In this document: positions 369-28,198 of the stretch, piece by piece
Layout of the letters: each line of letters begins with the position of its first letter
Position numbering within the stretch: the first letter of the stretch is position 1
Sequence record: PP400777
Length of the DNA stretch: 64,000 nt
DNA from: Escherichia phage JM10
Reading direction: 5' to 3' (one strand)
Program-made: the position numbers and the translations under genes
Notes under the pieces: model-generated
Seen by the model: only the letters and a program-made list of their open reading frames with translations
What the model was told of the DNA's origin: nothing
The model's database searches: none

Positions 369-597
369 CGCGTTTGATAAAATTCACTTCACTTACTGAA
401 AGGTCTTTAAGACCGATTGATTCTAAACGCTGAATAAAAGTCAACATTGGGATATAGTCCCAATGTGTTTTAGACGTTTGATAAGTACGGACGCCATTAG
501 CAATTTCAACGTTCAAATCGGAAATGGTAACGAATACCGGTCGCTCATCATTAACTTTAAGGGTTAGAACAACTTTCTTTGAATCTAAACTAATCAT
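349..597 (-). CDS. hypothetical protein
   Basis: 82-aa ORF in the early-strand gene array. Confidence 0.4.
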   Translation of the reverse strand: MISLDSKKVVLTLKVNDERPVFVTISDLNVEIANGVRTYQTSKTHWDYIPMLTFIQRLESIGLKDLSVSEVNFIKRVVSINL

Positions 598-13799: not shown

Positions 13800-13887
13800 T
13801 TAAAGTTTCAACAAAATTCACCAAATCATTCTGACGAGCATCAACCTGATTTCTATAAAAATTAAATAAGATTAGCTTGTTCACAGG

Positions 13888-13998
13888 TCATTTTACCATA
13901 CTCGCTTCAATAAGATTCATTACACCATTTACCATGTTATACGTAAACATCGGATAATTGTATTGTATCACAACGTATACGATAAGCAAAAGTTTCAT
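13888..13998 (-). CDS. possible small hydrophobic peptide (36 aa)
   Basis: ATG with GGAGA RBS just downstream of the 14027-14056 promoter; below the ORF-track cutoff. Confidence 0.2.
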   Translation of the reverse strand: MKLLLIVYVVIQYNYPMFTYNMVNGVMNLIEASMVK

Positions 13999-14026
13999 TT
14001 TGTTCTCCATTTGTTTTGGTAGGACT

Positions 14027-14056
14027 ACTATAACATAGTCCTACCAAGTTGTAAAC
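14027..14056 (-). promoter_or_regulatory. T4-type early promoter inside a PeSL-like cassette
   Basis: GTTTAC + 18 nt + TGtTATAGT; palindromic TAGGACTA..TAGTCCTA core. Confidence 0.5.
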
Positions 14057-14289
14057 TACCGATTGTGTTTTAAATGTTGATAAAGTTCTTCAACTTGTTT
14101 AGGGTCCAAAACAATTAAGTCATTTTCTTGACGAAGATAAATCCATCCCTTATCCCCAGGACCATTTTTACAAAACATCACCACCATATCATCATCTTTA
14201 GCGCTTTCAGGTAAAAGTTCAAGTACACCGTCTTCAGATTTTCCAGTATAATCGTAAAGCATAATATCCTCACATAATCTCGTTAACAT
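14056..14289 (-). CDS. hypothetical small protein
   Basis: 77-aa acidic ORF. Confidence 0.35.
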   Translation of the reverse strand: MLTRLCEDIMLYDYTGKSEDGVLELLPESAKDDDMVVMFCKNGPGDKGWIYLRQENDLIVLDPKQVEELYQHLKHNR

Positions 14290-14449
14290 ACATTTGCAAT
14301 TCGGTGTGGGCGTCAGCCATCTTTTTCATAGCTCTGTTAATGTCGATGTCTCCATCTTCGCAACCATGAGCATTTTCCCAATCAGATACCGCATTAGCGT
14401 ACTCTTCAATCAAAAACATTAACTTAGAAATTTTTTCTTTACGTGACAT
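14270..14449 (-). CDS. hypothetical small protein
   Basis: 59 aa from MSRKEK with GGAGAA RBS. Confidence 0.35.
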   Translation of the reverse strand: MSRKEKISKLMFLIEEYANAVSDWENAHGCEDGDIDINRAMKKMADAHTELQMYVNEIM

Positions 14450-14476
14450 AACGTTCTCCTCTAGTAAGTAAGGTTT

Positions 14477-14505
14477 ACTATAACACAACCTGAGGAGAAG
14501 TAAAC
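14477..14505 (-). promoter_or_regulatory. T4-type early promoter
   Basis: GTTTACttctcctcaggttgtgtTATAGT. Confidence 0.45.
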
Positions 14506-14516
14506 TGATAGATGCC

Positions 14517-14544
14517 AAAAAGCCCCAACCTTTCGGAAGGGGCT
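14517..14544 (-). terminator. rho-independent terminator hairpin (repeat copy A)
   Basis: minus-strand AGCCCCTTCCGAAAGGTTGGGGCT followed by a T-run; downstream of rI. Confidence 0.55.
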
Positions 14545-14550
14545 AGTAAA

Positions 14551-14853
14551 TTAGATAGATGTAGGCTCTAATTTTATTTTCATGAACTCAGCAAATTGTC
14601 TGGCAGTTTTTATGCCTTGTTCATGACATTCAAATGCATCATCACAGGGGCTATTTTTGTAATGCTTTGCCATATACTTATAGAATTTTTCAGAATTCTC
14701 GACATTTTGAATTTCAAACAAAGTATATACGTTTTTAATCCCTGATTCCATAAAGTTATCAAAATATGGGTCGATATATGCAGTACCAACGATAGGAGTT
14801 GTTGCTGCAAAAAACCACAGCATCGCCATGACAGCTATCGCTCTTAAGGCCAT
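14551..14853 (-). CDS. rI: lysis inhibition regulator RI (antiholin)
   Basis: signal-anchor N-terminus; FMESGI..PC..FEC motifs match my recall of T4 RI. Confidence 0.75.
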   Translation of the reverse strand: MALRAIAVMAMLWFFAATTPIVGTAYIDPYFDNFMESGIKNVYTLFEIQNVENSEKFYKYMAKHYKNSPCDDAFECHEQGIKTARQFAEFMKIKLEPTSI

Positions 14854-14865
14854 ATAGGCCTCCTG

Positions 14866-15078
14866 TTAATTTTGGCCAGTATTTATTTTTCGCCTTTGGA
14901 CGGCCTTAACATCTGTGAGGTATTTTTCCAGCTTGCGCTTGCGTGTATAATCAGCTTTAGAACCAGTTTGACGGATATCCTCGTTTAAATGAGAAATAGA
15001 ATGTCCTAATTCTCTTCGGATTTCATCCAATTGGGTTACAGTAAGATTACGAAGTTGTCTTTCGTTTAATTGCTGCAT
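14866..15078 (-). CDS. hypothetical small protein
   Basis: 70-aa basic ORF between tk and rI. Confidence 0.4.
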
Positions 15079-15105
15079 ATATACCTCTTGGTTAGATATT
15101 AGTAT

Positions 15106-15687
15106 TTATAACAACCCTGTCAAATCATTCCAATGCTTCCGGCATAATGACACGTATCTATCGGTATCACCAATTTCAATTTGACTGCCATCTGTAATTG
15201 GAAGTCCGTCTTCCGTGACTCTAGCTACCATTGTGGCCTTTTTACCGCAATGACAGACACCTTTAAGTTCAACAAGCTTATCGGCAATAGCCATTAATGC
15301 TTGAGAACCTTCAAATAGATTACCTTTAAAATCTGTTCGTAGTCCATATGCCATTACCGGCACATTGTATACGTCAACAATACGACTAAGTTGATACACC
15401 TTTTCAGTAGTTAAGAACTGAGCTTCGTCAACAAATACACAATGAATATCCTTTTGTGCTGCAGCCCATTTATAGAATTCAAAGATATCCATGTCTTTTG
15501 TAATTATATTGGCATCCTGACGAATACCAATACGAGAGACTATTTCACCTTTTGAATCACGAGTATCAATAGCCGGTTTAAGAACTAATACACCCATGCC
15601 ACGTTCTTTATAGTTATGTGCGGCAGTAAGTAATGAAGCAGACTTACCGGCGTTCATAGCGGCATATGTAAAAATTAAACTAGCCAT
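15106..15687 (-). CDS. tk: thymidine kinase
   Basis: 193 aa; P-loop NAGKSASLL; C-terminal Cys pairs. Confidence 0.9.
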   Translation of the reverse strand: MASLIFTYAAMNAGKSASLLTAAHNYKERGMGVLVLKPAIDTRDSKGEIVSRIGIRQDANIITKDMDIFEFYKWAAAQKDIHCVFVDEAQFLTTEKVYQLSRIVDVYNVPVMAYGLRTDFKGNLFEGSQALMAIADKLVELKGVCHCGKKATMVARVTEDGLPITDGSQIEIGDTDRYVSLCRKHWNDLTGLL

Positions 15688-15696
15688 AAGAGTCCC

Positions 15697-15879
15697 TTAT
15701 AGTGAATTCACGTAGTCAATGAGTTCTTGTTCTTTCCTGTCAAATGATTCCATCAATGCGTGATATTCTTCGTCCGTCAAAGGAGCATATTCATCGTACG
15801 CATTGGTGGCTGCTTGTTCATCCAATAGGTCATGGATAAGTTCGAACAGTTTAGCTTTCTCTTCTTTAGTTAATTTCAT
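15697..15879 (-). CDS. hypothetical small acidic protein
   Basis: 60-aa ORF. Confidence 0.35.
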   Translation of the reverse strand: MKLTKEEKAKLFELIHDLLDEQAATNAYDEYAPLTDEEYHALMESFDRKEQELIDYVNSL

Positions 15880-16370
15880 TTAGGTTCCAAATCAACAATC
15901 ACAATTTCTAGTTTAGTGGAATACGTATCTAAAATCTCTTCGATGACATCCCAGTTTCCACCACCAATACCTGCACCAATTCTTGGCATATAAATTACAG
16001 GCTTTGTTATCTTATTCTTTCCGAATTCATTTAATTCTATTATACAATTCATTAAAGCAGAGTACTCAAAATTAGGTCCCGGCTCAAACTGTGTATAAAG
16101 ATTAAAGCAATAAGCTTTATGGGTCTTAAAATATTTTTCATAAACCGAATAAGACCCGAGTTTAGACTCATCTCCGAATTCGGTTTGAAGTTTATCGGCT
16201 TCCAGAATTTTTGGATAAGCCTTTGCTAATTGTCCTGCTACACCAGCGCCCATTGTATGAAAACAATTACACCCATGCGCAATATTATTACCTTTAGAAA
16301 ACAGGGCGACAATATCGCCCTTGATATAGTTTTTAATCACTTGCTGCAAGTCCTCTAGTATAAGAGTCAA
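15876..16370 (-). CDS. macro-domain-like protein (possible ADP-ribose binding/hydrolase)
   Basis: GCNCFHTMGAGVAGQL and IGAGIGGG glycine-rich motifs resemble macro-domain loops. Confidence 0.4.
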   Translation of the reverse strand: MTLILEDLQQVIKNYIKGDIVALFSKGNNIAHGCNCFHTMGAGVAGQLAKAYPKILEADKLQTEFGDESKLGSYSVYEKYFKTHKAYCFNLYTQFEPGPNFEYSALMNCIIELNEFGKNKITKPVIYMPRIGAGIGGGNWDVIEEILDTYSTKLEIVIVDLEPK

Positions 16371-16680
16371 CTAGGCGGTCCACCATAGAATTGCATGCTG
16401 CCTTATCTTTAGGTTCCGCCACCGAGCATTCTAATATTTGCCATTTTTTATAGTATCTTTTAATTAAGGTAGACGCCTTGAACCTACTAGACGCCCCATC
16501 TTTTTCTCCGTCTTTATACGCATATAACAATTTTTGTGAAAAATCTACTTTACACTCTTGACTTTTACCACAATAATCAGACGCCGTTCTGTTTGTATAC
16601 TCCGTTACATCAGTATATGTAGTATTAGCAAGAGCGTTAAATGAAACCAAGCCAACTATTAAAGCCAACATTTTGGTCAT
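16333..16680 (-). CDS. secreted protein
   Basis: N-terminal signal-peptide-like MTKMLALIVGLVSFNALA. Confidence 0.4.
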   Translation of the reverse strand: MTKMLALIVGLVSFNALANTTYTDVTEYTNRTASDYCGKSQECKVDFSQKLLYAYKDGEKDGASSRFKASTLIKRYYKKWQILECSVAEPKDKAACNSMVDRLVDSYTRGLAASD

Positions 16681-17219
16681 TCTTTTATTTCCAGTAGTTT
16701 ATTTGATTTAAGGTAATTAGCCTTTTCTAGGACTTCAGAAGCATATTTACTTCCAGCACTTGTCTTCCATCCTGCATTATATGAGGATATAGCTTTTCTT
16801 ATATCCCCGTTATGTATATTTAACCAATAAGAAAATTCGATATAAGCCCATCTGGCTGAATTAGACCGCTTAGATAGCATTTTCTTAATTTGGGCATCAG
16901 TCATATTATAACCAAGCTGGTTAATTCTTGCCCTCATTGTCGGTAGATAATTTTGGAACATTCCATACGCATGGTGACCTTTCTTATCTTTAAGATTAAT
17001 ACCGGCAGATGATTCCTGCCATAGTATTGCGGCCATTATGTATCCAAGTCCTTTCTTATGCATATTTTCATGCGTTTTAAATTTTCCGTCCTTAGAAAAC
17101 TGTTCCCCAAACTGATAAGCATAATTCAAGTTATCGAGTTGGACATTACTAAAAGTATGCTCGGAGCTATGTGCTGATAATGAAAGAGCAAATAGACCAG
17201 CGAGTAGTGCTTTTCTCAT
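16677..17219 (-). CDS. secreted lytic transglycosylase-like protein
   Basis: signal peptide; WQESS and SYNAGW motifs typical of SLT domains. Confidence 0.5.
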   Translation of the reverse strand: MRKALLAGLFALSLSAHSSEHTFSNVQLDNLNYAYQFGEQFSKDGKFKTHENMHKKGLGYIMAAILWQESSAGINLKDKKGHHAYGMFQNYLPTMRARINQLGYNMTDAQIKKMLSKRSNSARWAYIEFSYWLNIHNGDIRKAISSYNAGWKTSAGSKYASEVLEKANYLKSNKLLEIKE

Positions 17220-17227
17220 GTTTACCT

Positions 17228-17686
17228 CTAGATTTTAATCACTGCTTTAGAAGCTTTTCCTGGTAGTCGTTTATTGTTAATAATAGCCATTCTGCATTGA
17301 AGAGACTTCATTTTGAATGCTGGATTTTCGCGACAAACTGTAAGTCCTAACCAAAGATTTCCATCAGTTATTTCTAAACGGCCTGGGCGATATTCGACAC
17401 CTTCGACAAAATCTTCATCAACATCTGGACGTGCCGGCATTGATAAAAATTCTGCAACTTCTTTAACATGATTTTTTACTTTATGAAATAATTCAAAAAC
17501 GTAATTCTCATCTATTTCTCTCTGGATGGCACGATCTAAGAGATGTTGAGAATACTTGATATGAAAGCCTGGTAGTCCAAGAGACTTTGCAGCATCTTTT
17601 ATACTGGCATTTATTTTGCGGAACTCCGTTTCAAAGATTCGACGGAGTTTATTACGGCGGATAAAAACGTCTGAATTGATAGTCAT
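17228..17686 (-). CDS. regB: RegB site-specific endoribonuclease
   Basis: 152 aa; close match to my recall of T4 RegB. Confidence 0.85.
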   Translation of the reverse strand: MTINSDVFIRRNKLRRIFETEFRKINASIKDAAKSLGLPGFHIKYSQHLLDRAIQREIDENYVFELFHKVKNHVKEVAEFLSMPARPDVDEDFVEGVEYRPGRLEITDGNLWLGLTVCRENPAFKMKSLQCRMAIINNKRLPGKASKAVIKI

Positions 17687-17714
17687 TTTGATTTCTCCTC
17701 TAGTTGACAGGTCT

Positions 17715-17743
17715 ATAGTAACACAACTAGAGGAGAAGTAAAC
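17715..17743 (-). promoter_or_regulatory. T4-type early promoter upstream of regB
   Basis: GTTTACttctcctctagttgtgtTACTAT. Confidence 0.45.
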
Positions 17744-17747
17744 TACT

Positions 17748-17963
17748 TTATTGATAAAATGGAGTTAAAGCCCAAGATTCTTTAGATACTATATTGGCGA
17801 AATGCCTCATCTCTTCGATTTGGCGACGACGCTGGTCAGCATAGTCTTCTTCGCCTTCTTCCTTACAATCTTCAAGGTCTTCTTCAAGATACTTTAAGTA
17901 TTCACTACAAATTTTGTTGACCTTTTCTTGAAAGTCCAATAACCCAGTAATAGTAGAAGCCAT
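17748..17963 (-). CDS. hypothetical small acidic protein (vs.3 position)
   Basis: 71-aa ORF. Confidence 0.4.
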   Translation of the reverse strand: MASTITGLLDFQEKVNKICSEYLKYLEEDLEDCKEEGEEDYADQRRRQIEEMRHFANIVSKESWALTPFYQ

Positions 17964-18239
17964 TAGTATTTTTCCTCAGGTCGAAATACTGCACGACATG
18001 CCCACATGCTGGCTTCTTTTAGATGTTGCTTAGCATACTTAAGAGCCTGCACTGCATCCATATCTTCTTTGGTTTGTTGCTCTGTTTCATTTTCTTTCAA
18101 GATATATGCTTCTTCAATCAGAGCATCAAACAACAATCCAAGACGGACTTCGGCATCTTTAATAGCGTTCACTTTACCGATTTTATCATCGGTATGCGGC
18201 TTGTAGCCTTTGATGTCTTCAATCGACATAAGGAATTTC
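17963..18239 (-). CDS. Acb2-like protein (T4 vs.4 position); candidate cyclic-nucleotide sponge
   Basis: 92 aa from MSIEDIK; position and size match T4 vs.4; assignment from recall only. Confidence 0.4.
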
Positions 18240-18443
18240 CTCATCAGTGGCAAGGTCATATTCGACCAATTGGATAGGCTCATTAATACCATATCCACGT
18301 ACAGTGATATCAGTTGACGGATATTTTCCAGTAATATCACCCGTTCTAAATGCTTCAATGAATGATTGCTCGCCTGAGCAACTAAACCAGGCGGCAAAAC
18401 ATTTTAAAACATCTTCAGACCCTTCTATAATCAATTTAGCCAT
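18219..18443 (-). CDS. hypothetical small protein
   Basis: 74-aa ORF. Confidence 0.4.
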   Translation of the reverse strand: MAKLIIEGSEDVLKCFAAWFSCSGEQSFIEAFRTGDITGKYPSTDITVRGYGINEPIQLVEYDLATDEEIPYVD

Positions 18444-18805
18444 TATAGACTCTCAGTAAAGGTACGAGCGATAACGTCGCGCTGCTGTTCCGGAGTCAGA
18501 GAGTTAAAGCGAACTGCATAACCGGATACACGGATGGTCAGCTGCGGATATTTTTCCGGATGCTTAACTGCATCTTCCAGAGTTTCACGACGCAGAACGT
18601 TAACGTTCAGATGTTGACCACCTTCAATTTTAACTTTAGGTTGATGTTCAATTTCAATTTCACGGGCATGCAAACCGTAGAAAATTTCCGGGTCTACAAT
18701 AGCGTCTTCTTTAAAAGTCTTAGAGACAATAATCCGGGCTTGAGTACCGTCTTCAAAATAAATAGTGCCTTTATGCGCACCTTCAAGAATTTGATATGCT
18801 TTCAT
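18443..18805 (-). CDS. autonomous glycyl-radical cofactor (GrcA/YfiD-like)
   Basis: C-terminal [25 protein letters not shown] is the pyruvate formate-lyase glycyl-radical signature. Confidence 0.75.
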
Positions 18806-18811
18806 ATAACC

Positions 18812-19183
18812 TCAATTAGAAAATAAATTTATCCAAGTTTTTTCTTTAATCAAAAATGGGTCGGAATTAAACGCCATTAAACTTTGAGTGATTAATCCCT
18901 TAAATGGCCCATCAATAAATTCCATTTTGAAATGCGGAATACTAGTCATCAACCGTGCATTAGGAGCAGTACAAAGAACCTGCTGCCCTGCGAACGGACC
19001 TTTAGTCAAACGATATCGTTTAGGTTTAAAATGGTAAATCTCGTAATTTTCTACAAGAGCCCTTTTATTGCATACTGGGCTGTTATAACAATATTCAAAA
19101 ACTTCAATAGTGGTCATCATTGCATTCCAATCACAAAAAATTGAGGACGAGCAATACCGCCGATGCAATATTTGCTTTTGCAA
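18812..19183 (-). CDS. hypothetical protein
   Basis: 123-aa ORF. Confidence 0.4.
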   Translation of the reverse strand: MQKQILHRRYCSSSIFCDWNAMMTTIEVFEYCYNSPVCNKRALVENYEIYHFKPKRYRLTKGPFAGQQVLCTAPNARLMTSIPHFKMEFIDGPFKGLITQSLMAFNSDPFLIKEKTWINLFSN

Positions 19184-19656
19184 CAGTGTTGGACTGTTTT
19201 AATATGGACATTGTAAATCTTATCCATATCAGGAGCTTTAATAGGCTCGTCAATTATGTACAGAATACGAGAAAGCGTTAATCCACGGAATTTAGAACCT
19301 TCATTGCCAATAAAACTACGAACAGAATCAGTAAATAAACGGAATCGAATATCATCGCTAGAATAACGAGAAAATTCTTTTTTAATGTTGCCAGCAGAAA
19401 TTTTAGCATAAGCTGAAGTATTAGAAAGAACAATAACAGTTCCGCCATCATACAACCAATTAGCAGCGAAGTTAGTCACAGCAATTGATTTACCTGATTG
19501 TCTGCCGCCGTCTAAACGAAGTGTACAGTACTGCTTGAGTACATCTTCAAATGGTGGGACATAACCGTTCTTACAAATTTCTTCTACTCTAGCATCAGAA
19601 TGGTGTGTAAAAGCATTCATCAGGGATAGATAAGGTCCAGTTAAAAATGTTCTCAT
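19117..19656 (-). CDS. hypothetical protein
   Basis: 179-aa ORF; start uncertain because of overlap with 18812..19183. Confidence 0.4.
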   Translation of the reverse strand: MRTFLTGPYLSLMNAFTHHSDARVEEICKNGYVPPFEDVLKQYCTLRLDGGRQSGKSIAVTNFAANWLYDGGTVIVLSNTSAYAKISAGNIKKEFSRYSSDDIRFRLFTDSVRSFIGNEGSKFRGLTLSRILYIIDEPIKAPDMDKIYNVHIKTVQHCCKSKYCIGGIARPQFFVIGMQ

Positions 19657-19769
19657 TTAGTTTCTCTTTTAGGTTGGGCCATTCCGTGGCGCATGAATTG
19701 TCCATTTCTGTATTTACCCCTCCAAGTAATTATGAATATACTATCACAATTCTAGGAGAAAGTAAACTG

Positions 19770-20072
19770 TTATTTACCTTTAATTACTTTAGCTGCTTCG
19801 ATAGCCGCTTGCTGAAGGTCATCCATAGACATACCGAATTTAGAAGCAAAGTTATCAATTTTCTTTTCGACAGCATTCAAAGGCTTTGCCTGTTTACCTT
19901 CATTAGCGCCAGGAAGAGCGAGAATACGCTCTTTGTCAATATAAAGGCTTACAAGTTTCTTACGGTCTTTATCGGACAAATCATGAAATGAATGGGCCTT
20001 TTTATTTATAGCGGCTTCTAATTTACCTGCACTCACTCGCGCTTCAGTAATAAATTCTTGATAGGTTTTCAT
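19770..20072 (-). CDS. ipII: internal protein (IpII-like) with capsid-targeting sequence
   Basis: N-terminal MKTYQEFITEA is the T4 capsid-targeting sequence (CTS); 100 aa. Confidence 0.6.
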   Translation of the reverse strand: MKTYQEFITEARVSAGKLEAAINKKAHSFHDLSDKDRKKLVSLYIDKERILALPGANEGKQAKPLNAVEKKIDNFASKFGMSMDDLQQAAIEAAKVIKGK

Positions 20073-20100
20073 GTGTTTCCTTGTTTGTTTTGATAGAGTA

Positions 20101-20130
20101 ATTATACCATATTAATACTTAAGCGTAAAC
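20101..20130 (-). promoter_or_regulatory. T4-type early promoter
   Basis: GTTTAC + 18 nt + TGgTATAAT. Confidence 0.5.
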
Positions 20131-20210
20131 CGTTTAAGCTTTACCGCCAGAAATAATTCCGAAGTTGTTAAAATCATATCCAATATCGTCAACATCTACT
20201 TTAGGACTTG

Positions 20211-20396
20211 CTACAACATAAGCAATTTCACTACGTTTTGCATAGGTGTTTTGATTTCTTTACCATCGCCACCTAAGAAAGAATACCCATTACGTTTTAA
20301 TGAGCCAAAGTCTTCCGCATCACCAATGAAAGCTTTAACTTTAAATTTAGGACCTTTGGCATCTGCTTCAACGATAAATTCTTGATACATTTTCAT
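20211..20396 (-). pseudogene. CTS-containing small internal-protein gene, apparently frameshifted
   Basis: MKMYQEFIVEA start; frame ends after 61 aa and continues in the +1 frame for about 28 more codons. Confidence 0.35.
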
Positions 20397-20563
20397 TTTT
20401 CCTTAGTAAATTGATTTACCAAAGTATTTGTACCAAGTCGGGCGTTGAGCAATTTTTTATCTAAGCGTGCTTGACTTATCGCAATGGACGCTTCGGACGG
20501 GTCATAATTTCCTCCAAGTAGTTGATGAATGTATAGTATCAAAACCCTTGGAGGAAGTAAACA

Positions 20564-20845
20564 CTATTTTTCTGAAGCGCCTGAAATATATTTTTCAAGA
20601 CGTTGTTTCATCAGCGAGCCGTTCTTAGCAATTTCTTCCGGTTTATCGCACATACGCAACAAGGCTTCAAGCTTAACGATATCACTGGTGCGCTCAAATT
20701 TGCGAGTATCTATCTTACTAGCAAGTTCAGAAATACGTGCTAATAGACTTTCAGCTTCAACCAAAGCTGCACCTAGCTTAGTTGCAAATGTGTCAGTAGC
20801 TTCGTTAAGAATAGATTCTGATAAAAATTCACTATATGTTTTCAT
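20564..20845 (-). CDS. internal protein (IpIII-position) with capsid-targeting sequence
   Basis: [13 protein letters not shown]; directly upstream of e as ipIII is in T4. Confidence 0.55.
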
Positions 20846-21330
20846 ATATACGCTTTCCAAGTTCCTGTTTTAAATGTTGAGATTACGCGTTTCGCGCGAT
20901 TAGGTGTCTGACGATACCATTTAGATTGGGCTAGATTTACTGCCGCCTCGTCCCAACGTTTCTGTTGAAGCATACGAAGAGAATTAGTAAAACCGGCGAC
21001 GCCTGCTACACCCATTTGGAAGACCATATTGACCAATGCACATCGACGAACCGCATCTAAAGAATCATATACCGGTTTAAGTTTAGCATTACCCAAGATT
21101 CCGCGAACGGCTTTATCAACGTCTTCATTAAATAGCTTTTCAGCCTCATCAAGGGTAATTGTACCGTTGCATTTACGACCGATAATTCTGTCAAGTTCAG
21201 CTTTAGCTACGGCTAAAGACGGGTTCTTTGTTACTAAATGGCCTATGCCAATCGTCCAAAAGCCTTCAGTGTCTTTATATAAAGTCAGTCTAAGACCTTC
21301 GTCATTACGAAGCATTTCAAATATATTCAT
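20842..21330 (-). CDS. e: lysozyme (endolysin)
   Basis: [17 protein letters not shown]; strong match to my recall of T4 lysozyme. Confidence 0.9.
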
Positions 21331-21364
21331 AATACCTCCCACGTTTATAGGAGGTATTTATTAC

Positions 21365-21823
21365 TTATAGGAGGGTAGTGAGCACCTTATATAATGATTT
21401 GCCCATTACATATTCCCATTGAGAAGGTTTAATTAAAGCGAATGCATCAAATTCAGGAATCTGTCGTCCGTCTGGGAATGTATGATAGGAATTACAAACA
21501 CTGTTTCTGAATTGCTCGTGCTCTACAGGGATGGTATATTGGAACAGATGAATATTCTTATTGTCTGAGTAATGATGTTCACCTAGGTCTTTCAGGAAGG
21601 CAGGGTCATATTGTGTAAACCCAGTTTCTTCTTCGCATTCACGAATAGCGGCTTCAATAGGAGATTCGCCAGGTTCGACACGGCCTTTAGGAATATCCCA
21701 CCGATGGGCTAATGCACCTTTAGGACGAGAACCAGTTACACGCCCCATGAATAATTCTTTATCTTTGGTAAGGAAAATAATACCGGCTGATAGTTCTTTC
21801 ACTTTATTTTTCTTACTCATCAT
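21365..21823 (-). CDS. nudE: Nudix hydrolase
   Basis: Nudix box GRVEPGESPIEAAIRECEEETG. Confidence 0.8.
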   Translation of the reverse strand: MMSKKNKVKELSAGIIFLTKDKELFMGRVTGSRPKGALAHRWDIPKGRVEPGESPIEAAIRECEEETGFTQYDPAFLKDLGEHHYSDNKNIHLFQYTIPVEHEQFRNSVCNSYHTFPDGRQIPEFDAFALIKPSQWEYVMGKSLYKVLTTLL

Positions 21824-22064
21824 CTCGGTCCAATGATTTGGCCATTAATTCGGACATAAATTCTTCAAGGCGCGTTTCTTTAGATGGACTTTCACTATTA
21901 GAGATCGCAAGTTTGTAATCTGCAATAGGACAGAACATATCAAGGTCCATATTAAGGTCGTCTTTGATTTTTTCTTCTGACACATCTTTATCGTATGTGT
22001 ACAGATAACTATCACATGATTCTGATTTAATGTAAATTGCTATACTCATCTCAAATTCCTGCAT
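21813..22064 (-). CDS. hypothetical small protein
   Basis: 83-aa ORF. Confidence 0.35.
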   Translation of the reverse strand: MQEFEMSIAIYIKSESCDSYLYTYDKDVSEEKIKDDLNMDLDMFCPIADYKLAISNSESPSKETRLEEFMSELMAKSLDRDDE

Positions 22065-22537
22065 TCGGTAATAAAACGTTCAACTTCATTATTCTTGGCT
22101 TTTATCTTGTCTTTATGTTCTTGTAAACTACTTTTAATAAGATTAATAATGATGCCTACAGTACCTCCACCAATAATACCACCAATAATACTTACAATAG
22201 TAGATGATAATAAGATAGCGATAATATCTAGTACAGCAAAGGCACTTACTTTAGTACTAAAAAACCATACCGACGGTACAAATATAATCCATCCTGTTAT
22301 CCATTGGCACTTATTGAAAAACTTTTCAAGCTCAGCTTGGGTTGTTCGTATTACTTCATCGATAGGTTGATATCCATTAATGTATCTGTTCACGATAATA
22401 CCTGCTGGTTTGTCGATTTTAAATGCTTGACAATGGTGTTTCACTAAGTAGGATGGACATCCTGTCCAATCTACTGAATAGTATGAAATACCTTCGTCGC
22501 CATCGCCCATGTTTGACCAGTGAATTTTCTGTATCAT
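22046..22537 (-). CDS. membrane protein
   Basis: 163 aa; hydrophobic helices in the middle. Confidence 0.4.
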   Translation of the reverse strand: MIQKIHWSNMGDGDEGISYYSVDWTGCPSYLVKHHCQAFKIDKPAGIIVNRYINGYQPIDEVIRTTQAELEKFFNKCQWITGWIIFVPSVWFFSTKVSAFAVLDIIAILLSSTIVSIIGGIIGGGTVGIIINLIKSSLQEHKDKIKAKNNEVERFITECRNLR

Positions 22538-23223
22538 TACCAGCCTTCCATAGGGAATTCCAGATAAACTTGGGCATTGACACGAATTTCATTGGTAATC
22601 TTTTTAACTCGGTCTGTACTACGAGATACACGTCCGAACCAACGCCATCCGTTACTAATTGCACGAGAACCAGTGTGCCATGTTTGCCAATCAAACTGAA
22701 GAAGAGTACGATCTGGAGCTTCCCATTTCTCTAGTTCACCTTTTTCAATTTTTTCGAGGACTTCTTTGTGCCACTGACGATAGATAAGTTCGCCATCAGG
22801 AATCTGACTGAACTCTGCAGTTCCTGTTGCAAAATGAGTAGGACACACATCAGCGTTAACAAGACCAAGAATATGTTCAGACAAATAGCGAGGATTGTCA
22901 TAGTCAGGTTGTCCTGCAGTAATAAAGTGTTGACCAACTGGAATATCAGGGCGAGGAACATCATCATGGTGATATCCAGGAATAGCAGGGTACCAGCCAG
23001 GCATCAGCATGTGGACTCGTGAATCAAATACTACATCCGAGTCTTTCCAATCGTCAGGAAGATTTTGGATAAAGCTACGAGTAATTGGGCCGCCATTATC
23101 AAAAGCAAAATTTAAATCGCAGTTAAAGAACATAGGCTCGTTTTTAATCTGGTCGTTTTTAATCGCATGAGCAAAACCACCTACTGCACGAGCTTGACTA
23201 TTAAACACTTTAGAACTATTCAT
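22537..23223 (-). CDS. hypothetical protein
   Basis: 228-aa ORF. Confidence 0.45.
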   Translation of the reverse strand: MNSSKVFNSQARAVGGFAHAIKNDQIKNEPMFFNCDLNFAFDNGGPITRSFIQNLPDDWKDSDVVFDSRVHMLMPGWYPAIPGYHHDDVPRPDIPVGQHFITAGQPDYDNPRYLSEHILGLVNADVCPTHFATGTAEFSQIPDGELIYRQWHKEVLEKIEKGELEKWEAPDRTLLQFDWQTWHTGSRAISNGWRWFGRVSRSTDRVKKITNEIRVNAQVYLEFPMEGW

Positions 23224-23224
23224 A

Positions 23225-23530
23225 TTATTTTCCTCGGCATTCTTTAATGAAATTTTCTAGATTGGTAGATTCAATAGCTTTTTTACGAGCTTCTGCGTGT
23301 TCTTCTTCGGACAATTTACATTTATAATTGACCCAGACATTATGGTCAAAACTAGTCGTGGCATATAATAACAAAGCTCCGACGAATAATAAAAACGGTG
23401 ATAAGAATACAAAACCAGGAACACCATCCATACTGTAAGCCTTTTGTAATACTGCAACAGAAAGAGCTACGTAAAAAGGTGTTGCAAATATTGTAAAAAG
23501 ACCGATTCGATTGGTTTCGCCTAATTTCAT
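23225..23530 (-). CDS. membrane protein
   Basis: 101 aa; two hydrophobic helices. Confidence 0.4.
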   Translation of the reverse strand: MKLGETNRIGLFTIFATPFYVALSVAVLQKAYSMDGVPGFVFLSPFLLFVGALLLYATTSFDHNVWVNYKCKLSEEEHAEARKKAIESTNLENFIKECRGK

Positions 23531-23558
23531 AATATTCTCCTCATGTTTTAATAGGACT

Positions 23559-23588
23559 ACTATAACATAGTCCTATAATTGTGTAAAC
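23559..23588 (-). promoter_or_regulatory. T4-type early promoter in a PeSL-like cassette
   Basis: GTTTAC + 18 nt + TGtTATAGT with palindromic TAGGACTA core. Confidence 0.5.
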
Positions 23589-23600
23589 AGTTTTGCGAAA

Positions 23601-24557
23601 TTATTTGAAAGGTTTTACAATATTGAAATTTTGTTTGAAACGTTTGACGTAATCATCATGTCCTAAGCTTTGGTACATACTTACTACTTTGCTGTAGTTT
23701 TCCCAGGCATACTCACGGAACCAACCGGAGGTTATGCTTGTACAGACTTTTTCCAATGCCATCATGAAACTGGCTTCAGGGTTAATTTTAAAGTCATTAG
23801 GAATCTGAGAACGTTCTAATGCTAGTACACATGATTCTTCATATACACCGGCCAATTTGACCATTTCTGGTAACGATTCGAACTTCTCGCGTGAGGTCAT
23901 TACTTCAGAACCATCTTTCATGTAAAATGTATAAGCCGGACGGTCTGTTAGTGCAATGGCTTCGTGAATAGTATCGTGGTCATATGTATAGATGTCATCT
24001 TTAAAGAACGCACTTTTAGAAGTGTCAAGAACCGGGTGAGCATAGTTCAAGGTTTCTTTCTGGCGTTTCAGCATAATTTCGGTAAGTTCATCGTTCAGTG
24101 TAACACCTTTACCACGAAGATACTGAATATGGTTCATAGTCTTTAAAAAGAATGGATTATTTTTCTTGAAACGATGAGACATCTTAATTGCAAGACATAT
24201 CTCAGGAGTTGCCCAGTAAAACCCGTTCAAACGGTCTTTAGTCAAATTTTTCTTGGCGTATTTTAAAAGGTCATAAGAAGACGTGAAATCTTCAGGAGTG
24301 AGTTCACCGACTAATTCACGGACATTAGTGATTGCCGGAACAATATATGCTTCAAAATGAGTTTCGCGTCCATTATGGAAGCATTTGAAAACTTGGACAT
24401 CAGGGTTATCTTGGTGAACATATACACCCATCATTTGATTTTTGAATGCATTCCAAGAACATTGGTCCGCAATAAAGTCCCAATCACTATTTTTAATAGC
24501 GCTAGAATCAATAAGACCGTGATAGTGAAGTGCACGAGAACCAATAACCAACATCAT
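23601..24557 (-). CDS. hypothetical protein
   Basis: 318-aa ORF. Confidence 0.45.
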   Translation of the reverse strand: MMLVIGSRALHYHGLIDSSAIKNSDWDFIADQCSWNAFKNQMMGVYVHQDNPDVQVFKCFHNGRETHFEAYIVPAITNVRELVGELTPEDFTSSYDLLKYAKKNLTKDRLNGFYWATPEICLAIKMSHRFKKNNPFFLKTMNHIQYLRGKGVTLNDELTEIMLKRQKETLNYAHPVLDTSKSAFFKDDIYTYDHDTIHEAIALTDRPAYTFYMKDGSEVMTSREKFESLPEMVKLAGVYEESCVLALERSQIPNDFKINPEASFMMALEKVCTSITSGWFREYAWENYSKVVSMYQSLGHDDYVKRFKQNFNIVKPFK

Positions 24558-24625
24558 AATATTTTCCTCGGATTAATTCATTAACTTAAATTTCACGACA
24601 TGCGATATCATATTCATCCCAGAGG

Positions 24626-24838
24626 TCATCGTGTGAAGCCTCTACCAATGGAACGATTGTACCCGTTTATGTCTTCATTATAAGGGCAAATTGTACAGTG
24701 CGCATCTTCGAATCGGATGCCTTTATGTTCAGATTTTTTATAACGCATATCGAATATCTTTGCAAACTTTTCACGAGTAATGGTTTTAGCAACCACTTTG
24801 GTTCCGATACTTTCGTAATAAATCATTGTGGACTCCAT
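24626..24838 (-). CDS. hypothetical small protein
   Basis: 70-aa ORF. Confidence 0.35.
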   Translation of the reverse strand: MESTMIYYESIGTKVVAKTITREKFAKIFDMRYKKSEHKGIRFEDAHCTICPYNEDINGYNRSIGRGFTR

Positions 24839-24854
24839 TTAATTTGATAGAACT

Positions 24855-24884
24855 ACTATAACATAGCCCTATCTTGTTGTAAAC
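24855..24884 (-). promoter_or_regulatory. T4-type early promoter in a PeSL-like cassette
   Basis: GTTTAC + 18 nt + TATAGT-type -10. Confidence 0.45.
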
Positions 24885-24888
24885 TGTT

Positions 24889-25086
24889 TTAGCAAGAATA
24901 ACTAGATGATACCCAGCCTTGAACAGTAATACTATTATTTGATAACGAGATTGCGTCCTGGAGATTCAGACCTGCGTTATCTTCAATCCATAATATAACT
25001 TCTTCGCGTTCTTCTGTTGCAATTTGGAACAGGTTTTCCAGAGCAGCTACTGCCGTACGTACAGCGCAATCTAATTCACGAGACAT
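24889..25086 (-). CDS. small protein, paralog 1 of the C-terminal GWVxSSxxC family
   Basis: ends ..QGWVSSSYSC. Confidence 0.45.
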   Translation of the reverse strand: MSRELDCAVRTAVAALENLFQIATEEREEVILWIEDNAGLNLQDAISLSNNSITVQGWVSSSYSC

Positions 25087-25095
25087 ATGATTTCC

Positions 25096-25368
25096 TTAAC
25101 AAGTGTGAGAAGACGCGACCCAACCACCAGTTTCGAGGCTAAGGTTGTAGTCGTATTGGTAAACGTCAGCCCATTCAGCATAGCCGTTTTTTGTACAACG
25201 TTCAAGATCGGCTTTAAGATGTCCGGGTGAATGATAGGTTCCACCCATACCATAAGCTGGGTACAAGTCGAATGTTGTGTTTTGTTTATCAGCAATTTCT
25301 TTGGCAGCCTCAATAGCTGCATAGATTTTTGCTACAGCTTCAGCCAGTTCGGTTTGTTCTTTAGACAT
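25096..25368 (-). CDS. small protein, paralog 2 of the C-terminal GWVxSSxxC family
   Basis: ends ..GGWVASSHTC. Confidence 0.5.
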   Translation of the reverse strand: MSKEQTELAEAVAKIYAAIEAAKEIADKQNTTFDLYPAYGMGGTYHSPGHLKADLERCTKNGYAEWADVYQYDYNLSLETGGWVASSHTC

Positions 25369-25377
25369 AATGATTCC

Positions 25378-25683
25378 TTAGCACAACGCAGAAGACGAAA
25401 CCCAAGCACCTTCAGTAATAACGTAACCATTACCTTCACGCTTAACATCGCCACCATTATTTTCAATTTCATTTTTCATCCACTGGGATACGATTTCACC
25501 CTTAGGATAATAAGTACGACCGCTACCATAATCACCTACAGAAAATGATACGGCATATTGGTCTGCGATCTTTGTTGCTTCTTCTTCGATACGTTCAGCT
25601 TGATTCAGAAGTTTATAAATTGCATCTGAAGCGGATTTGGCATCATTAAACTCTGGTACTTTAATTTCAATAATCTTACTCAT
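25378..25683 (-). CDS. small protein, paralog 3 of the C-terminal GWVxSSxxC family
   Basis: ends ..GAWVSSSALC; shares MSK start and internal motifs with paralog 2. Confidence 0.5.
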   Translation of the reverse strand: MSKIIEIKVPEFNDAKSASDAIYKLLNQAERIEEEATKIADQYAVSFSVGDYGSGRTYYPKGEIVSQWMKNEIENNGGDVKREGNGYVITEGAWVSSSALC

Positions 25684-26039
25684 TTTCTACATTCCTTAAT
25701 AAAGTTTTCGATTGTTTCATTTTCACGTCTAGCTAGGAGTTCATTATAACTAATCATTTGAGAAGCGTAAACCTTTTTATTTTTCTTGTTATGGTTTATA
25801 AAATCGTAGTAAAAATAGACTACAGTACAAAATGATGCGATGGATGCAAAGGCTTGGGTATACCGTAAGTCCTGCCATTGGTCTGTGAATCCACCAGTGT
25901 TCCCTATAAATCCTAACACAACGCCGTCAATAAGAAATCCAACTAATCCAAAGGCAAATCCCATGCCAATACTCATAATAAAAATTAGAATGTTCTCACC
26001 AAGAGAAGGCCATACGGTTAAGAGTTGAGGCTTTTGCAT
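25680..26039 (-). CDS. membrane protein
   Basis: 119 aa; hydrophobic helices. Confidence 0.4.
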   Translation of the reverse strand: MQKPQLLTVWPSLGENILIFIMSIGMGFAFGLVGFLIDGVVLGFIGNTGGFTDQWQDLRYTQAFASIASFCTVVYFYYDFINHNKKNKKVYASQMISYNELLARRENETIENFIKECRK

Positions 26040-26443
26040 CTTATTTCCTTAACGAATTCCATAGCTTCTTCATATTCATACTTTTTAACAGCTTCATCAT
26101 ACTGAGCTTGGGCTTTTGCGCACTGAACTTTCCATTCTCTTAATCGGGCTCTGTGATGACGACCTTGGTGCCAATATCCTACCCAATTAATAGGCATTAA
26201 TAAAAATGGTACAATAAACGACCCGGCTATAATAAGTAAAAACACTGCATCAGACGATATAACTTCACTAGAATCTAAAACAGCTCCTATAATCATAAAG
26301 ATTAAAAATGCTAAAGCTAAAATAGGGCCAAATAGTACTTCATTTGGAATTAATTTACGCTTGTATTCATACGCCAAGGGTTTAATTGGCATGTACAGGG
26401 TTGGCTTTGACATATTCTCTACATTCCATAATAAATTGCTCAA
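26018..26443 (-). CDS. membrane protein
   Basis: 141 aa; hydrophobic helices. Confidence 0.4.
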   Translation of the reverse strand: MSNLLWNVENMSKPTLYMPIKPLAYEYKRKLIPNEVLFGPILALAFLIFMIIGAVLDSSEVISSDAVFLLIIAGSFIVPFLLMPINWVGYWHQGRHHRARLREWKVQCAKAQAQYDEAVKKYEYEEAMEFVKEIRCKSLNS

Positions 26444-26999
26444 GGATTAAATTGTTAGTGAAATTAGGACTAACAACCATGGTTTCATAAAGCGCATCAA
26501 TAGCACTTAAAGCATCAACTCTTTTAAGCAAAGGCTTGCCTTCATACATAGTTTCAGAATCGATGATTAACGTAAAGTAATATTTTTTATTATCGACTAG
26601 AACTTCTGTATCGATATAAAACATATTAGACCTCAGAAGCTTATCTCTAAAACCATAATAATCTTCAGAGCGTTCGCTGATATATTCCAATTCAGTGTTT
26701 AAACAACAAACAGACCATGTAGGAGCAACGAAATCAGTGAATCTAATATCATGGTCTGCAACTAGTTTAGCAATAGCTCCGATATCATGAATCATAATAC
26801 CTGGGGCTAATAAAGATTTTCGGTGATTTGCATATTCAGTTGTCTCATAAGAAGACGACCAGTACCATTTACGTCCAGTTGCAACATATCGTAATGAATC
26901 AACTAAAGACGTAGGTGGATTTACCTTATCTCGGAACTCTTCGAACATTGAGTCAATATCATTATTTTGGTTTCGCATGTTAACTCCTTTATTATCCAA
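26382..26999 (-). CDS. hypothetical protein
   Basis: 205-aa ORF. Confidence 0.45.
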   Translation of the reverse strand: MDNKGVNMRNQNNDIDSMFEEFRDKVNPPTSLVDSLRYVATGRKWYWSSSYETTEYANHRKSLLAPGIMIHDIGAIAKLVADHDIRFTDFVAPTWSVCCLNTELEYISERSEDYYGFRDKLLRSNMFYIDTEVLVDNKKYYFTLIIDSETMYEGKPLLKRVDALSAIDALYETMVVSPNFTNNLILEQFIMECREYVKANPVHAN

Positions 27000-27027
27000 A
27001 AGGAGGACCGGAGTCCTCCGTATTATT

Positions 27028-27621
27028 TTATTTCAAAGAGTTAATATATTCTTGTACATCAGCAGAAGTGGTTTCTACACCAGCTGGAGTGCCATTGAAC
27101 GTTTCAACACGAGTCAGAGTGTCTTCGATATCAACCTTAGTCAGTGCAGCGATTTCAATTACATCATCAGCCGTAGAGATACCAAGGGCATTGGCTGCTC
27201 GAGTTTCACGAATGTATTCGAGTTTGATTGCCAGGTTCTGACGAGCATCGTCAAGTTCAACCACCTTACGAGCAATTTCAATTCGCATAGCGGCATACCC
27301 ATCAGCTTTTGTATTAAGTTGTTCGGCAGTTCTACGATACAGAAGACCAAGCTTAGCATGCATGGTAACATCTTGTCCTTCAGCCAGGAGCTTACGAATT
27401 TCACGTTCCTTAGAAGCGGCTTGCTTGTTCTTTTCATTAACAAGTTCGCGAATACGTTTTTCTTCATTAATAGATTTAACAGAAGCCGTTTTTAGTTCTT
27501 TGATTTGGGTAATCAACTTATCTGCAGCTGCGTTATACTGTTCTTCGACAGTCAGATTTTTAGCCATAGCAGTACCAAGTTTAGTGCGGATGAATTCGAC
27601 AAGTTTCTTCAGTGTGTTCAT
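27028..27621 (-). CDS. coiled-coil protein
   Basis: about 197 aa from MNTLKK; long helical K/E/R-rich region. Confidence 0.4.
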
Positions 27622-27691
27622 ATTATTACCTTTCAATTGGTGGTTTATTATCCAACGAGAGCATTATACTCTGCTCTCAAGAGTTTGTAAA

Positions 27692-27919
27692 TTATTTTTT
27701 AATCAAATTGACATAAAACTTGGCGTCTTCGGGGTGCATGCCTTCGCAGTATTCTTCAACCATGAACTTCTTAACAGCTTCATAAGGACCACTCAGATTA
27801 AGCTCAGTTGTCCAGAACTTGGAATCTTGGACTGAATCGATACGAACTTCAGGGTGTCGGTTGCGAATAACTTCTTCGGTGTATTCATAATCAACGACAT
27901 CAATACTAACTTTAGCCAT
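27692..27919 (-). CDS. hypothetical small protein
   Basis: 75-aa ORF. Confidence 0.4.
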   Translation of the reverse strand: MAKVSIDVVDYEYTEEVIRNRHPEVRIDSVQDSKFWTTELNLSGPYEAVKKFMVEEYCEGMHPEDAKFYVNLIKK

Positions 27920-27947
27920 TTTGTGTTCCTCGTATTTTGATAGGACT

Positions 27948-27977
27948 ACTATAACATAAACTTACTTAGATGTAAAT
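27948..27977 (-). promoter_or_regulatory. early promoter variant in a PeSL-like cassette (ATTTAC -35)
   Basis: ATTTAC + 18 nt + TATAGT. Confidence 0.4.
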
Positions 27978-28130
27978 TATTTCAACGTCACCTTTAGCTG
28001 CTTTATAACCTTCGGCCCAAGATACAACAGAGTTTTTATCTGAGGATTCAAATTCAGGCATTGGACTTTCACCAATATTCACACAGTATGTTTCTTCATT
28101 TTCATCGAACCAAATAATTAAAGTAGTCAT
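27966..28130 (-). CDS. possible small protein (54 aa)
   Basis: ATG with AGGAG RBS; below the ORF-track cutoff. Confidence 0.25.
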   Translation of the reverse strand: MTTLIIWFDENEETYCVNIGESPMPEFESSDKNSVVSWAEGYKAAKGDVEIIYI

Positions 28131-28198
28131 TTTGTTTACTCCTCTGTAGTTGATAAGTCTATAGTATCACCGTCCTTGGTGCTTGTACATCATTATTT

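Follow-up and report, generated by a model that had tools for sequence, protein, structure and literature searches.

The window analysed here, a stretch of 64,000 nucleotides, derives from an RB69-like Mosigvirus (T4-type), is 97-99% identical to Mosigvirus phages and carries its early genes on the minus strand. Two mini-ORFs are encoded on this strand (Table 1): ORF1 runs from an ATG at 13998-13996 to a TGA stop at 13890-13888, and ORF2 from an ATG at 28130-28128 to a TAA stop at 27968-27966. Both were found where the first-pass annotation had placed them, and its description of good Shine-Dalgarno sequences directly behind early promoters was borne out as well, with a T4-type early promoter directly 5' of each ORF, each ORF being the first cistron of its own early-promoter cassette. 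The promoter, leader, Shine-Dalgarno and ATG layout is common to 16 minus-strand cassettes in the window, in the order -35 T[TG]TACA, a spacer of 16-17 nt, an extended -10, a leader of about 28 nt with a GGAG-type Shine-Dalgarno sequence (27-28 nt in most cassettes), and the ATG. With strong Shine-Dalgarno sequences and an ATG 28-30 nt behind the promoter, ORF1 and ORF2 resemble about 14 other accepted gene starts in the window. We consider it very probable that in this RB69-like T4-type phage both mini-ORFs are genuine accessory genes of the early class, predicted to be translated, ORF1 being mobD.2 and ORF2 being RB69ORF145c.

Table 1. Positions of the two mini-ORFs and their associated features in the window
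Feature	Position	Strand	Basis
ORF1, 36-aa MobD.2-family microprotein, MKLLLIVYVVIQYNYPMFTYNMVNGVMNLIEASMVK	13888..13998	-	phrog_3515, tblastn, open frame, AlphaFold2
ORF1 Shine-Dalgarno GGAG	14005..14008	-	6 nt before ATG
ORF1 T4-type early promoter, TTTACA-17-TGnTATAGT	14027..14055	-	10/12 matches plus TG; 28 nt before ATG
ORF1 13-bp hairpin (PeSL-type promoter/stem-loop element), overlapping promoter spacer and -10	14016..14047	-	-20.6 kcal/mol, z = -3.7
Decayed tk.1-like gene; 31-aa remnant with GTG start in another frame	13789..13893	-	RB69 comparison
ORF2, 54-aa acidic protein, RB69ORF145c	27966..28130	-	exact sequence match, phrog_5461, AlphaFold2
ORF2 Shine-Dalgarno GAGGAG	28139..28144	-	8 nt before ATG
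ORF2 weaker early-type promoter, TGTACA-17-TGaTACTAT	28161..28189	-	8/12 positions plus TG; conserved in T2, W143, G3F10
frd.3 early promoter; -35 TTTACA inside last codons of ORF2; recombination junction	27948..27976	-	promoter scan, alignment

Judged by sequence comparison, ORF1 is a homologue, and indeed the orthologue, of T4 mobD.2. It matched phrog_3515 with E = 3.4e-19, protein residues 1-34 aligning to profile positions 2-35 of 35, which is full-length similarity to a family of proteins of about 34 aa, and tblastn gave 64.7-67.6% identity over 34 aa to T4-type phages. The T4 protein (T4p098, NP_049712, UniProt P39239, 'Uncharacterized 4.2 kDa protein in mobD-ri intergenic region', 34 aa) shares the core motif IQYNYPMFTYN, while the C-terminus of ORF1 is two residues longer. 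Like T4 mobD.2, ORF1 is located on the early strand downstream of rI and upstream of mobD.1, between rI/rI.-1 and mobD.1-type genes, has an early promoter with a hairpin, and overlaps the next gene with its stop. Its homologues carry a precomputed PF26864.1 assignment; the Pfam search of ORF1 itself gave no match, the copy searched probably being without the PF26864 model, and there was no match in NCBIfam and nothing below E = 0.5 among PDB sequence profiles. ORF1 was found in 843 phage records, among them Tequatrovirus, Klebsiella, Serratia and Enterobacter phages and Aeromonas Karamvirus. Its frame is open in 10 of 10 genomes examined, covering six Tevenvirinae genera, and no other frame is open in all of them. 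Variable sites by codon position (20/6/27 of 31 columns) follow a coding pattern, and of eight pN/pS comparisons with the window, seven gave 0.16-0.43 and that with KpV477 gave 0.70, values to be read with pS near saturation between genera. The family spans 32-36 residues with an invariant core, VQYxxP[ML]FTYN[LMF]V, and throughout the Tevenvirinae the gene keeps a stable place in the rI-mobD.1 region. The ORF listing also gives a 40-aa variant starting at 14010, whose ATG overlaps the Shine-Dalgarno sequence; this start was rejected, having no Shine-Dalgarno sequence of its own and no conservation outside Mosigvirus. Homologues in T4 and in Klebsiella, Serratia and Enterobacter phages lack the upstream ATG, so that only the 36-aa start is conserved, and the 40-aa extension, used as the query for homologous proteins, returned only close relatives.

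The surroundings of the two genes recall the promoter-early stem-loop (PeSL) cassettes of T4-type phages (Arbiol et al. 2010, PMC2839356; Comeau et al. 2014, PMC4122927), whose small accessory ORFs lie between early promoters in hyperplastic regions. The ORF1 promoter aligns with the promoter 5' of T4 mobD.2 and shares with PeSL cassettes a strong conserved stem-loop of the type described in both papers. At the hairpin position T4 keeps a 15-bp stem whose sequence differs from that of ORF1 by paired changes on both arms, and the stem found there in Serratia phage CHI14 is unrelated in sequence. The ORF2 promoter, which the generic promoter scan did not flag, is an early promoter without a significant hairpin (folding z = -0.46 in the window and -1.21 in T2) and hence not a full PeSL; its counterpart in T2-type phages reads TGTACA-17-TGtTATTAT, with the same geometry as in other cassettes.

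The product of ORF1 is hydrophobic, as the first-pass annotation had noted (GRAVY +0.85), and the AlphaFold2 model is one helix over residues 2-35 with pLDDT 90. However, ORF1 peaks at 1.18 over 19-residue Kyte-Doolittle windows, where 1.6 is the usual transmembrane threshold, and the best windows of the MobD.2 family (0.69-1.18) all fall short of the single-pass transmembrane value of about 1.6; strong hydrophobicity (1.65-2.70) is limited to about 11 N-terminal residues, and the most conserved ORF1 residues are polar or aromatic. The sub-threshold hydrophobicity and the nature of these residues make membrane insertion uncertain. Our best guess is a membrane- or partner-bound helical microprotein, which would act as a peptide with its helix docked either in the membrane or on a partner protein. 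The bacterial single-helix microproteins AcrZ, MgrB and CydX bind larger membrane complexes. ORF1 is similar to them in size (about 30-50 aa), predicted single helix and hydrophobicity; this is an analogy only, since there is no sequence relationship, and ORF1 differs from them in its hydrophobicity below the transmembrane cut-off and in its polar or aromatic conserved residues. The T4 mobD.2 mRNA has been classed as 'early', and T4 MobD.2 was undetected in the time-resolved proteome (Class_P = NA; PMC9697503 Table S2), which is expected of a hydrophobic 34-aa peptide, yet leaves a gap.

A different role for ORF1 is suggested by its 3' end, where the stop overlaps the next ATG (ATGA, TAATG or TGATG) in all 10 genomes, whichever gene follows: mobD.1 in T4, a tk.1-like gene in RB69, and a DksA-like zinc-finger gene in Klebsiella, Enterobacter and Serratia phages. 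ORF1 might thus be mainly a coupling or leader ORF whose translation delivers ribosomes downstream, the peptide itself being unimportant. We regard this as improbable, because amino acids are conserved with synonymous sites near saturation and a 12-residue core is invariant, none of which pure coupling needs. Moreover, ORF1 is intact in the window and in phage a20, although the downstream tk.1-like gene is destroyed in both. Unlike T4, Mosigvirus has this gene between ORF1 and mobD.1, and RB69 holds an intact 59-aa version; at the same site the window shows a net 77-nt deletion relative to RB69, the ATG still overlaps the ORF1 stop (ATGA), the frame ends after 9 codons, about 75 nt before mobD.1 (likewise in a20), and the 31-aa remnant matches phrog_4859 at its C-terminal end only. 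Coupling and a peptide role are in any case not mutually exclusive.

ORF2 is 100% identical to RB69ORF145c (AAP76047.1), shares about 98% identity with the T2-type copies and matched phrog_5461 with E = 1.2e-35, its similarity to the RB69ORF145c family being full-length. It occupies the same e.8-e.6 hyperplastic slot as the RB69ORF145c / RB14ORF134 family (phrog_5461). Between the window and T2 there are 14 synonymous and 2 non-synonymous changes (pN/pS 0.04), variable sites by codon position number 4/3/21 of 54 columns, and the ORF2 frame is the only one open in 9 of 9 genomes examined, a pattern by which ORF2 is under very strong purifying selection. It was found in 328 records, including distant Rosemountvirus copies with 40-46% identity, in phages that are unrelated and have no detectable DNA context in common. 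Three IMG/VR loci are related to ORF2, and an exhaustive phmmer search recovered only four family members (P0006, P0013, P0014 and P0012, which is chimeric) besides two spurious hits to repeat proteins. T4 carries an unrelated e.7 gene in the ORF2 slot; identity of ORF2 with this gene was rejected, as tblastn gave no match, and an apparent relationship with the neighbour Frd.3 was also rejected, as the linking sequence (P0012) is a chimeric, frameshifted fusion.

The strong promoter that overlaps the 3' end of ORF2 serves frd.3, not ORF2, and marks a junction between lineages. Three genes alternate 3' of ORF2, with frd.3 following it in the window and in RB69, e.6 in T2, and e.7 in a contig from IMG/VR (locus L005), and in the alignment the three downstream sequences diverge directly after the -35 hexamer within the last codons of ORF2. 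The C-terminal tail differs as well, reading ...IIYI* before frd.3 here and ...IVYKLSGV* before e.6 in T2. ORF2 thereby shows the shuffling signature predicted for PeSL cassettes, namely recombination at promoters, and it behaves as a mobile cassette gene that recombination at flanking early promoters moves between genomic contexts.

The first-pass annotation had allowed for a membrane peptide in both cases, which does not fit ORF2, with its net charge of -8 and a confident alpha/beta fold (beta-beta-beta-alpha-beta, pLDDT 91 in AlphaFold2). ORF2 is predicted to be a soluble, strongly acidic protein, and our best guess is that it would bind and block a host protein early in infection, as its charge, size and timing suggest. 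The HicB N-terminal domain has a beta-beta-beta-alpha-beta topology. As ORF2 has the same predicted topology and is small, acidic and early, it might mimic a HicB-like antitoxin and neutralise an RNase of a host toxin-antitoxin or abortive-infection system, and the Foldseek list against PDB does contain the HicB-like TTHA1013 (E = 0.17) and the putative antitoxin 3k6q (E = 2.4). However, nothing in that search reached E <= 0.001 and the best match was DUF1491 (E = 0.065), not HicB; Pfam and NCBIfam gave no match, the PDB sequence profile search gave nothing below E = 0.5, even at permissive thresholds, and no toxin gene lies nearby. With neither a sequence nor a structure match to HicB-like antitoxins, we consider this reading highly improbable. 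A BFVD search with the ORF2 fold matched only uncharacterised phage proteins.

It could also be argued that one or both ORFs are chance frames, the conservation reflecting overlapping promoter, hairpin or terminator signals. At 37.7% GC an open frame arises by chance with a probability of 0.083 for 36 codons and 0.024 for 54 codons, so that openness by itself is weak evidence; in addition, ORF2 shares its 3' end with a promoter, a conserved hairpin precedes ORF1, and T4 MobD.2 went unseen in the proteome. Nevertheless, variation is biased to third positions along the full length of both ORFs, and the proposed frame alone is open in every genome, which answers the check on related phages that had been proposed beforehand. 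Furthermore, the ORF2 protein is recognisable in Rosemountvirus without shared DNA context, the AlphaFold2 models of both ORFs are confident, and the Shine-Dalgarno sequence is correctly spaced in every homologue having its own promoter. The Shine-Dalgarno sequences, fixed promoter spacing and cross-genus conservation together place both ORFs far beyond chance, and we find the chance-frame explanation, largely refuted by these comparisons, hardly credible.

The two genes are real in our reading, but they were not unannotated, as had been claimed. RB69ORF145c (AAP76047) entered GenBank with the deposit of the RB69 genome, and ORF1 is annotated in many Mosigvirus records (e.g., a20_214 and JM10 XAO14211) and in T4 (NP_049712), although some records omit it, the RB69 reference record among them. 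Both are already catalogued as hypothetical proteins in GenBank and PHROGs, with a Pfam assignment for ORF1 homologues, so the finding is correct but ordinary. Early promoters 5' of novel ORFs were reported for RB69 by Nolan et al. (2006, PMC1524935), and as a discovery the present pattern matters little, having been published for small novel RB69 ORFs in that year. Nothing was found in main texts of the literature on mobD.2, RB69ORF145c, the PHROG ids, PF26864 or T4 ribosome profiling. A broader interpretation, which we put forward as tentative and rather unlikely, is that the MobD.2-family helix, whose core VQYxxP[ML]FTYN varies hardly at all among six Tevenvirinae genera, is a specific early effector docking on a defined host target, and that RB69ORF145c is an acidic anti-defence or host-takeover inhibitor spreading between unrelated enterobacterial phages. 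The target of the former could be a host membrane complex or a transcription factor, the latter being a candidate because of the DksA-like and y05I-like neighbours, and the spread of RB69ORF145c could be that of a promoter-flanked cassette; neither the effector role nor the anti-defence or takeover role has been described previously.

The practical value of the analysis is modest. It makes plain that genuine phage genes under strong selection are missed at a 60-aa ORF cutoff, and it flags the absence of the mobD.2 homologue from the RB69 reference record. It also offers two well-defined early proteins of very small size, both with confident structure models, as candidates for functional screens, and in ORF2 it provides a clean example of genes shuffled by recombination at early promoters.

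ORF1, the mini-ORF homologous to T4 mobD.2, and ORF2, identical in protein sequence to RB69ORF145c (AAP76047), are both conserved and protein-coding, and their expression signals are of the early type. Both were found exactly at the positions given by the first-pass annotation. Like all the genes around them, they are on the minus strand, the early strand in T4-type phages. By megablast, the window belongs to the RB69-like Mosigvirus group (Straboviridae, Tevenvirinae), with 97.8% identity to phages a20, BEU50 and NRG-P0074 in the ORF1 region and 99.0% identity to RB69 in the ORF2 region. The description of the two ORFs as unannotated cannot be kept, since both genes are already catalogued as T4 mobD.2 and RB69ORF145c and in PHROG families, and Pfam covers ORF1 homologues as well. 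The original observation was right, yet it is nothing new in kind.

Positions of the two mini-ORFs and of the associated genes, promoters and stem-loops (window coordinates unless another locus is named)
Feature	Position	Strand	Description
ORF1	13888-13998	-	ATG at 13998, TGA at 13888; 36 aa; GGAG 6 nt before ATG
ORF2	27966-28130	-	ATG at 28130, TAA at 27966; 54 aa; GAGGAG 8 nt before ATG
ORF1 promoter	14055-14027	-	TTTACA-17-TATAGT with upstream TG; generic promoter scan
ORF1 promoter hairpin	14016-14047	-	13 bp; -20.6 kcal/mol, z = -3.7
T4 hairpin	L006 about 4940-4985		15 bp
Serratia phage CHI14 stem	L009 about 559-586		
ORF2 promoter	28189-28161	-	TGTACA-17-TGaTACTAT; 30 nt leader
Strong promoter of frd.3	27976-27948	-	overlaps ORF2 stop region; generic scan
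Cassette sites, examples	31350, 30975, 28560, 27976, 24883, 23587, 17742, 14504, 11422, 9668, 8027	-	tailored scan
Further sub-60-aa gene	14270-14449	-	59 aa from SD-preceded ATG; starts 27 nt behind promoter 14504-14477
tk.1-like gene, broken	13789-13893	-	net 77-nt deletion relative to RB69
RB69 mobD.2 homologue	RB69 57507-57617 (L007 2008-2118)	-	intact 36-aa ORF with promoter and SD

ORF1 and its promoter align to T4 mobD.2, a 34-aa gene directly upstream of mobD.1 that is annotated as 'MobD.2 conserved hypothetical protein' and named 'Uncharacterized 4.2 kDa protein in mobD-ri intergenic region' in UniProt. The peptide matches phrog_3515 (E = 3.4e-19), and PF26864.1 is a precomputed Pfam assignment on its homologues; a local Pfam search with ORF1 did not report PF26864.1. 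Using tblastn, the frame was found in 843 phage records, with identities of 86-97% in Mosigvirus, about 65% in Tequatrovirus including T2, and 42-60% in Klebsiella, Serratia, Enterobacter and Aeromonas-isolated Tevenvirinae. ORF2 matches phrog_5461 (E = 1.2e-35) and was found by tblastn in 328 phage records, with identities of up to 100% in Mosigvirus and about 98% in T2-type Tequatrovirus. These records also include Rosemountvirus, from phages that infect Salmonella and E. coli, with 40-46% identity over residues 1-41; the Rosemountvirus proteins have the motif W[FY]DxNE..[WY].VN....P[MV]P.[FY].S.D in common. When 1.84 billion representatives were searched exhaustively with phmmer, only four members of the ORF2 family came up, so the family is small and phage-specific.

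That the two are chance ORFs is essentially excluded. Conservation of the frames in related phages, which had been proposed as a check, was borne out when the comparison was run: the proposed frame is the sole one open in all ten genomes (six genera) compared for ORF1 and in all nine compared for ORF2. An intact ORF1 homologue of 32-36 codons, with the core VQY-x-x-P-[ML]-FTYN-[LMF]-V, is present in 10/10 genomes. Its variable columns number 20, 6 and 27 of 31 by codon position, pN/pS against the window is 0.16-0.43 in seven of eight comparisons (0.70 for KpV477), and pS reaches 0.6-0.9 between genera. As judged from these alignments, the variation is a coding signature rather than that of a kept DNA or RNA signal. 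For ORF2, the window and T2 differ by 14 synonymous and two non-synonymous changes (pS 0.44, pN 0.015), and variable columns by codon position are 4, 3 and 21 of 54; by these patterns, the protein is under very strong purifying selection.

Annotation of the ORF1 family is uneven. The gene is annotated in many records, such as a20_214 and, with identical sequence, JM10 XAO14211. The RB69 reference (AY303349.1) lacks a CDS for it, and the RB69 ORF sits in a 165-nt stretch without annotation that separates 'tk.1' from RB69ORF107c; EnA02, KpV477 and PS49 are among several records that also leave the homologue out. In loci of Klebsiella, Enterobacter and Aeromonas-isolated Tevenvirinae (L008, L010-L013), the homologue has no promoter of its own and is wedged, its start and stop overlapping those of its neighbours, with a phrog_2978 gene (label from L008) on one side and on the other a DksA-like zinc-finger gene (product names from L008, L010 and L011). 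Several RefSeq/PGAP records give the name 'molybdopterin-guanine dinucleotide biosynthesis protein MobD' to T4 mobD.x-type small ORFs (e.g., mobD.4 of T4, NC_000866), MobD.2 homologues in Shigella and Salmonella assemblies among them. This name seems to come from mixing up gene symbols, not from a real function.

The placement of both ORFs behind early promoters was confirmed, but the promoter of ORF2 is a weaker match: the generic scan found no site above threshold before ORF2. A tailored T4-early pattern (T[TG]TAC[AT], 16-18 nt, TA..T) gave 16 sites on the minus strand of the window, each followed by an SD sequence and an ATG, and almost no similar arrangement on the plus strand. These cassettes have in common a -35 of T[TG]TAC[AT], a spacer of 16-17 nt and a -10 usually preceded by TG, and in most of them the promoter lies exactly 27-28 nt from the ATG. 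ORF1, with a 28-nt leader, and ORF2 both fit this series, in which the remaining sites belong to gene starts that are already accepted. T2-type phages keep the ORF2 promoter and have a better -10 (TATTAT). In RB69, 13 of 57 predicted early promoters precede novel ORFs (Nolan et al. 2006, PMC1524935). In position and length, the further small gene in the table matches RB69 'mobD.2a' (180 nt) and a20_216; its true start was probably hidden in the first-pass track, because the ORF listing gives it as an 82-aa TTG-start ORF.

A hairpin encloses the spacer and -10 of the ORF1 promoter. T4 has a longer hairpin in the same place with both arms changed, and in Serratia phage CHI14 a stem whose sequence is unrelated takes its place; the mobD.2-promoter stems are of similar stability, about -21 to -23 kcal/mol. 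The ORF1 hairpin is of the promoter-early stem-loop (PeSL) type (Arbiol et al. 2010, PMC2839356; Comeau et al. 2014, PMC4122927).

The main rival explanation for ORF1 is that it is a coupling or leader ORF. Its stop codon overlaps the next gene's start codon in every genome, and that gene varies by lineage (mobD.1, tk.1-like, or the DksA-like zinc-finger gene). This explanation is weakened by the sequence-level selection on ORF1 and by its survival where the downstream partner has decayed: the tk.1-like gene, which lies between ORF1 and mobD.1 and is intact in RB69 (59 aa), is reduced in the window to a stub of nine codons, coupled to the ORF1 stop, plus a remnant of 31 aa that starts with GTG and lies in another frame, yet ORF1 is intact. 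Related records label this remnant 'helicase loader' via phrog_4859 (e.g., a20_213), which looks like an over-transferred name.

As a protein, ORF1 may be a helical microprotein whose binding site is the membrane or some partner protein. AlphaFold2 with a small alignment modelled one helix spanning residues 2 to 35 (mean pLDDT 90). The peptide is hydrophobic (GRAVY +0.85), but no 19-residue Kyte-Doolittle window scores above 1.18; strong hydrophobicity is limited to roughly the first 11 residues, and the most conserved residues are polar or aromatic (Q, Y, N, P, T). In time-resolved omics of T4, the mobD.2 transcript was classed as early and the MobD.2 protein was not detected (PMC9697503 Table S2). 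ORF2 could be a soluble, acidic protein that binds or inhibits some host factor; its residues include 11 acidic and 3 basic ones (net charge -8), and its beta-beta-beta-alpha-beta model is confident (AlphaFold2, pLDDT 91, pTM 0.72). Foldseek against the PDB gave no match at E <= 0.001, the best being DUF1491 (4goq, E = 0.065) and TTHA1013 (E = 0.17), and Pfam, NCBIfam and PDB sequence searches gave no matches; in BFVD, ORF2 matched small uncharacterised phage proteins, such as one of JenP2 (E = 4e-5). We regard each of these two specific mechanisms as tentative, with a probability somewhat short of even.

Within the last codons of ORF2 sits the -35 hexamer of the following early promoter, (A/G)TTTACA, and right after it the aligned genomes (window; L014, L005, L001) split three ways: the window and RB69 go on into frd.3, T2, W143 and G3F10 into e.6, and the IMG/VR locus L005 into an e.7 homologue. 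The C-terminal tail of ORF2 changes along with the continuation; in T4, an unrelated e.7 gene occupies the e.8-e.6 slot. In P0012, a 55-aa annotated protein of Escherichia phage OLB35, residues 1-19 of Frd.3 run on into ORF2-protein residues 20-38 and then a frameshifted tail; P0012 is evidently a recombination or deletion product of the two neighbouring cassettes. Judging by the aligned loci, the ORF2 junctions show the pattern that would be expected of recombination at early promoters in hyperplastic regions, and the junction between ORF2 and the next promoter illustrates such shuffling cleanly.
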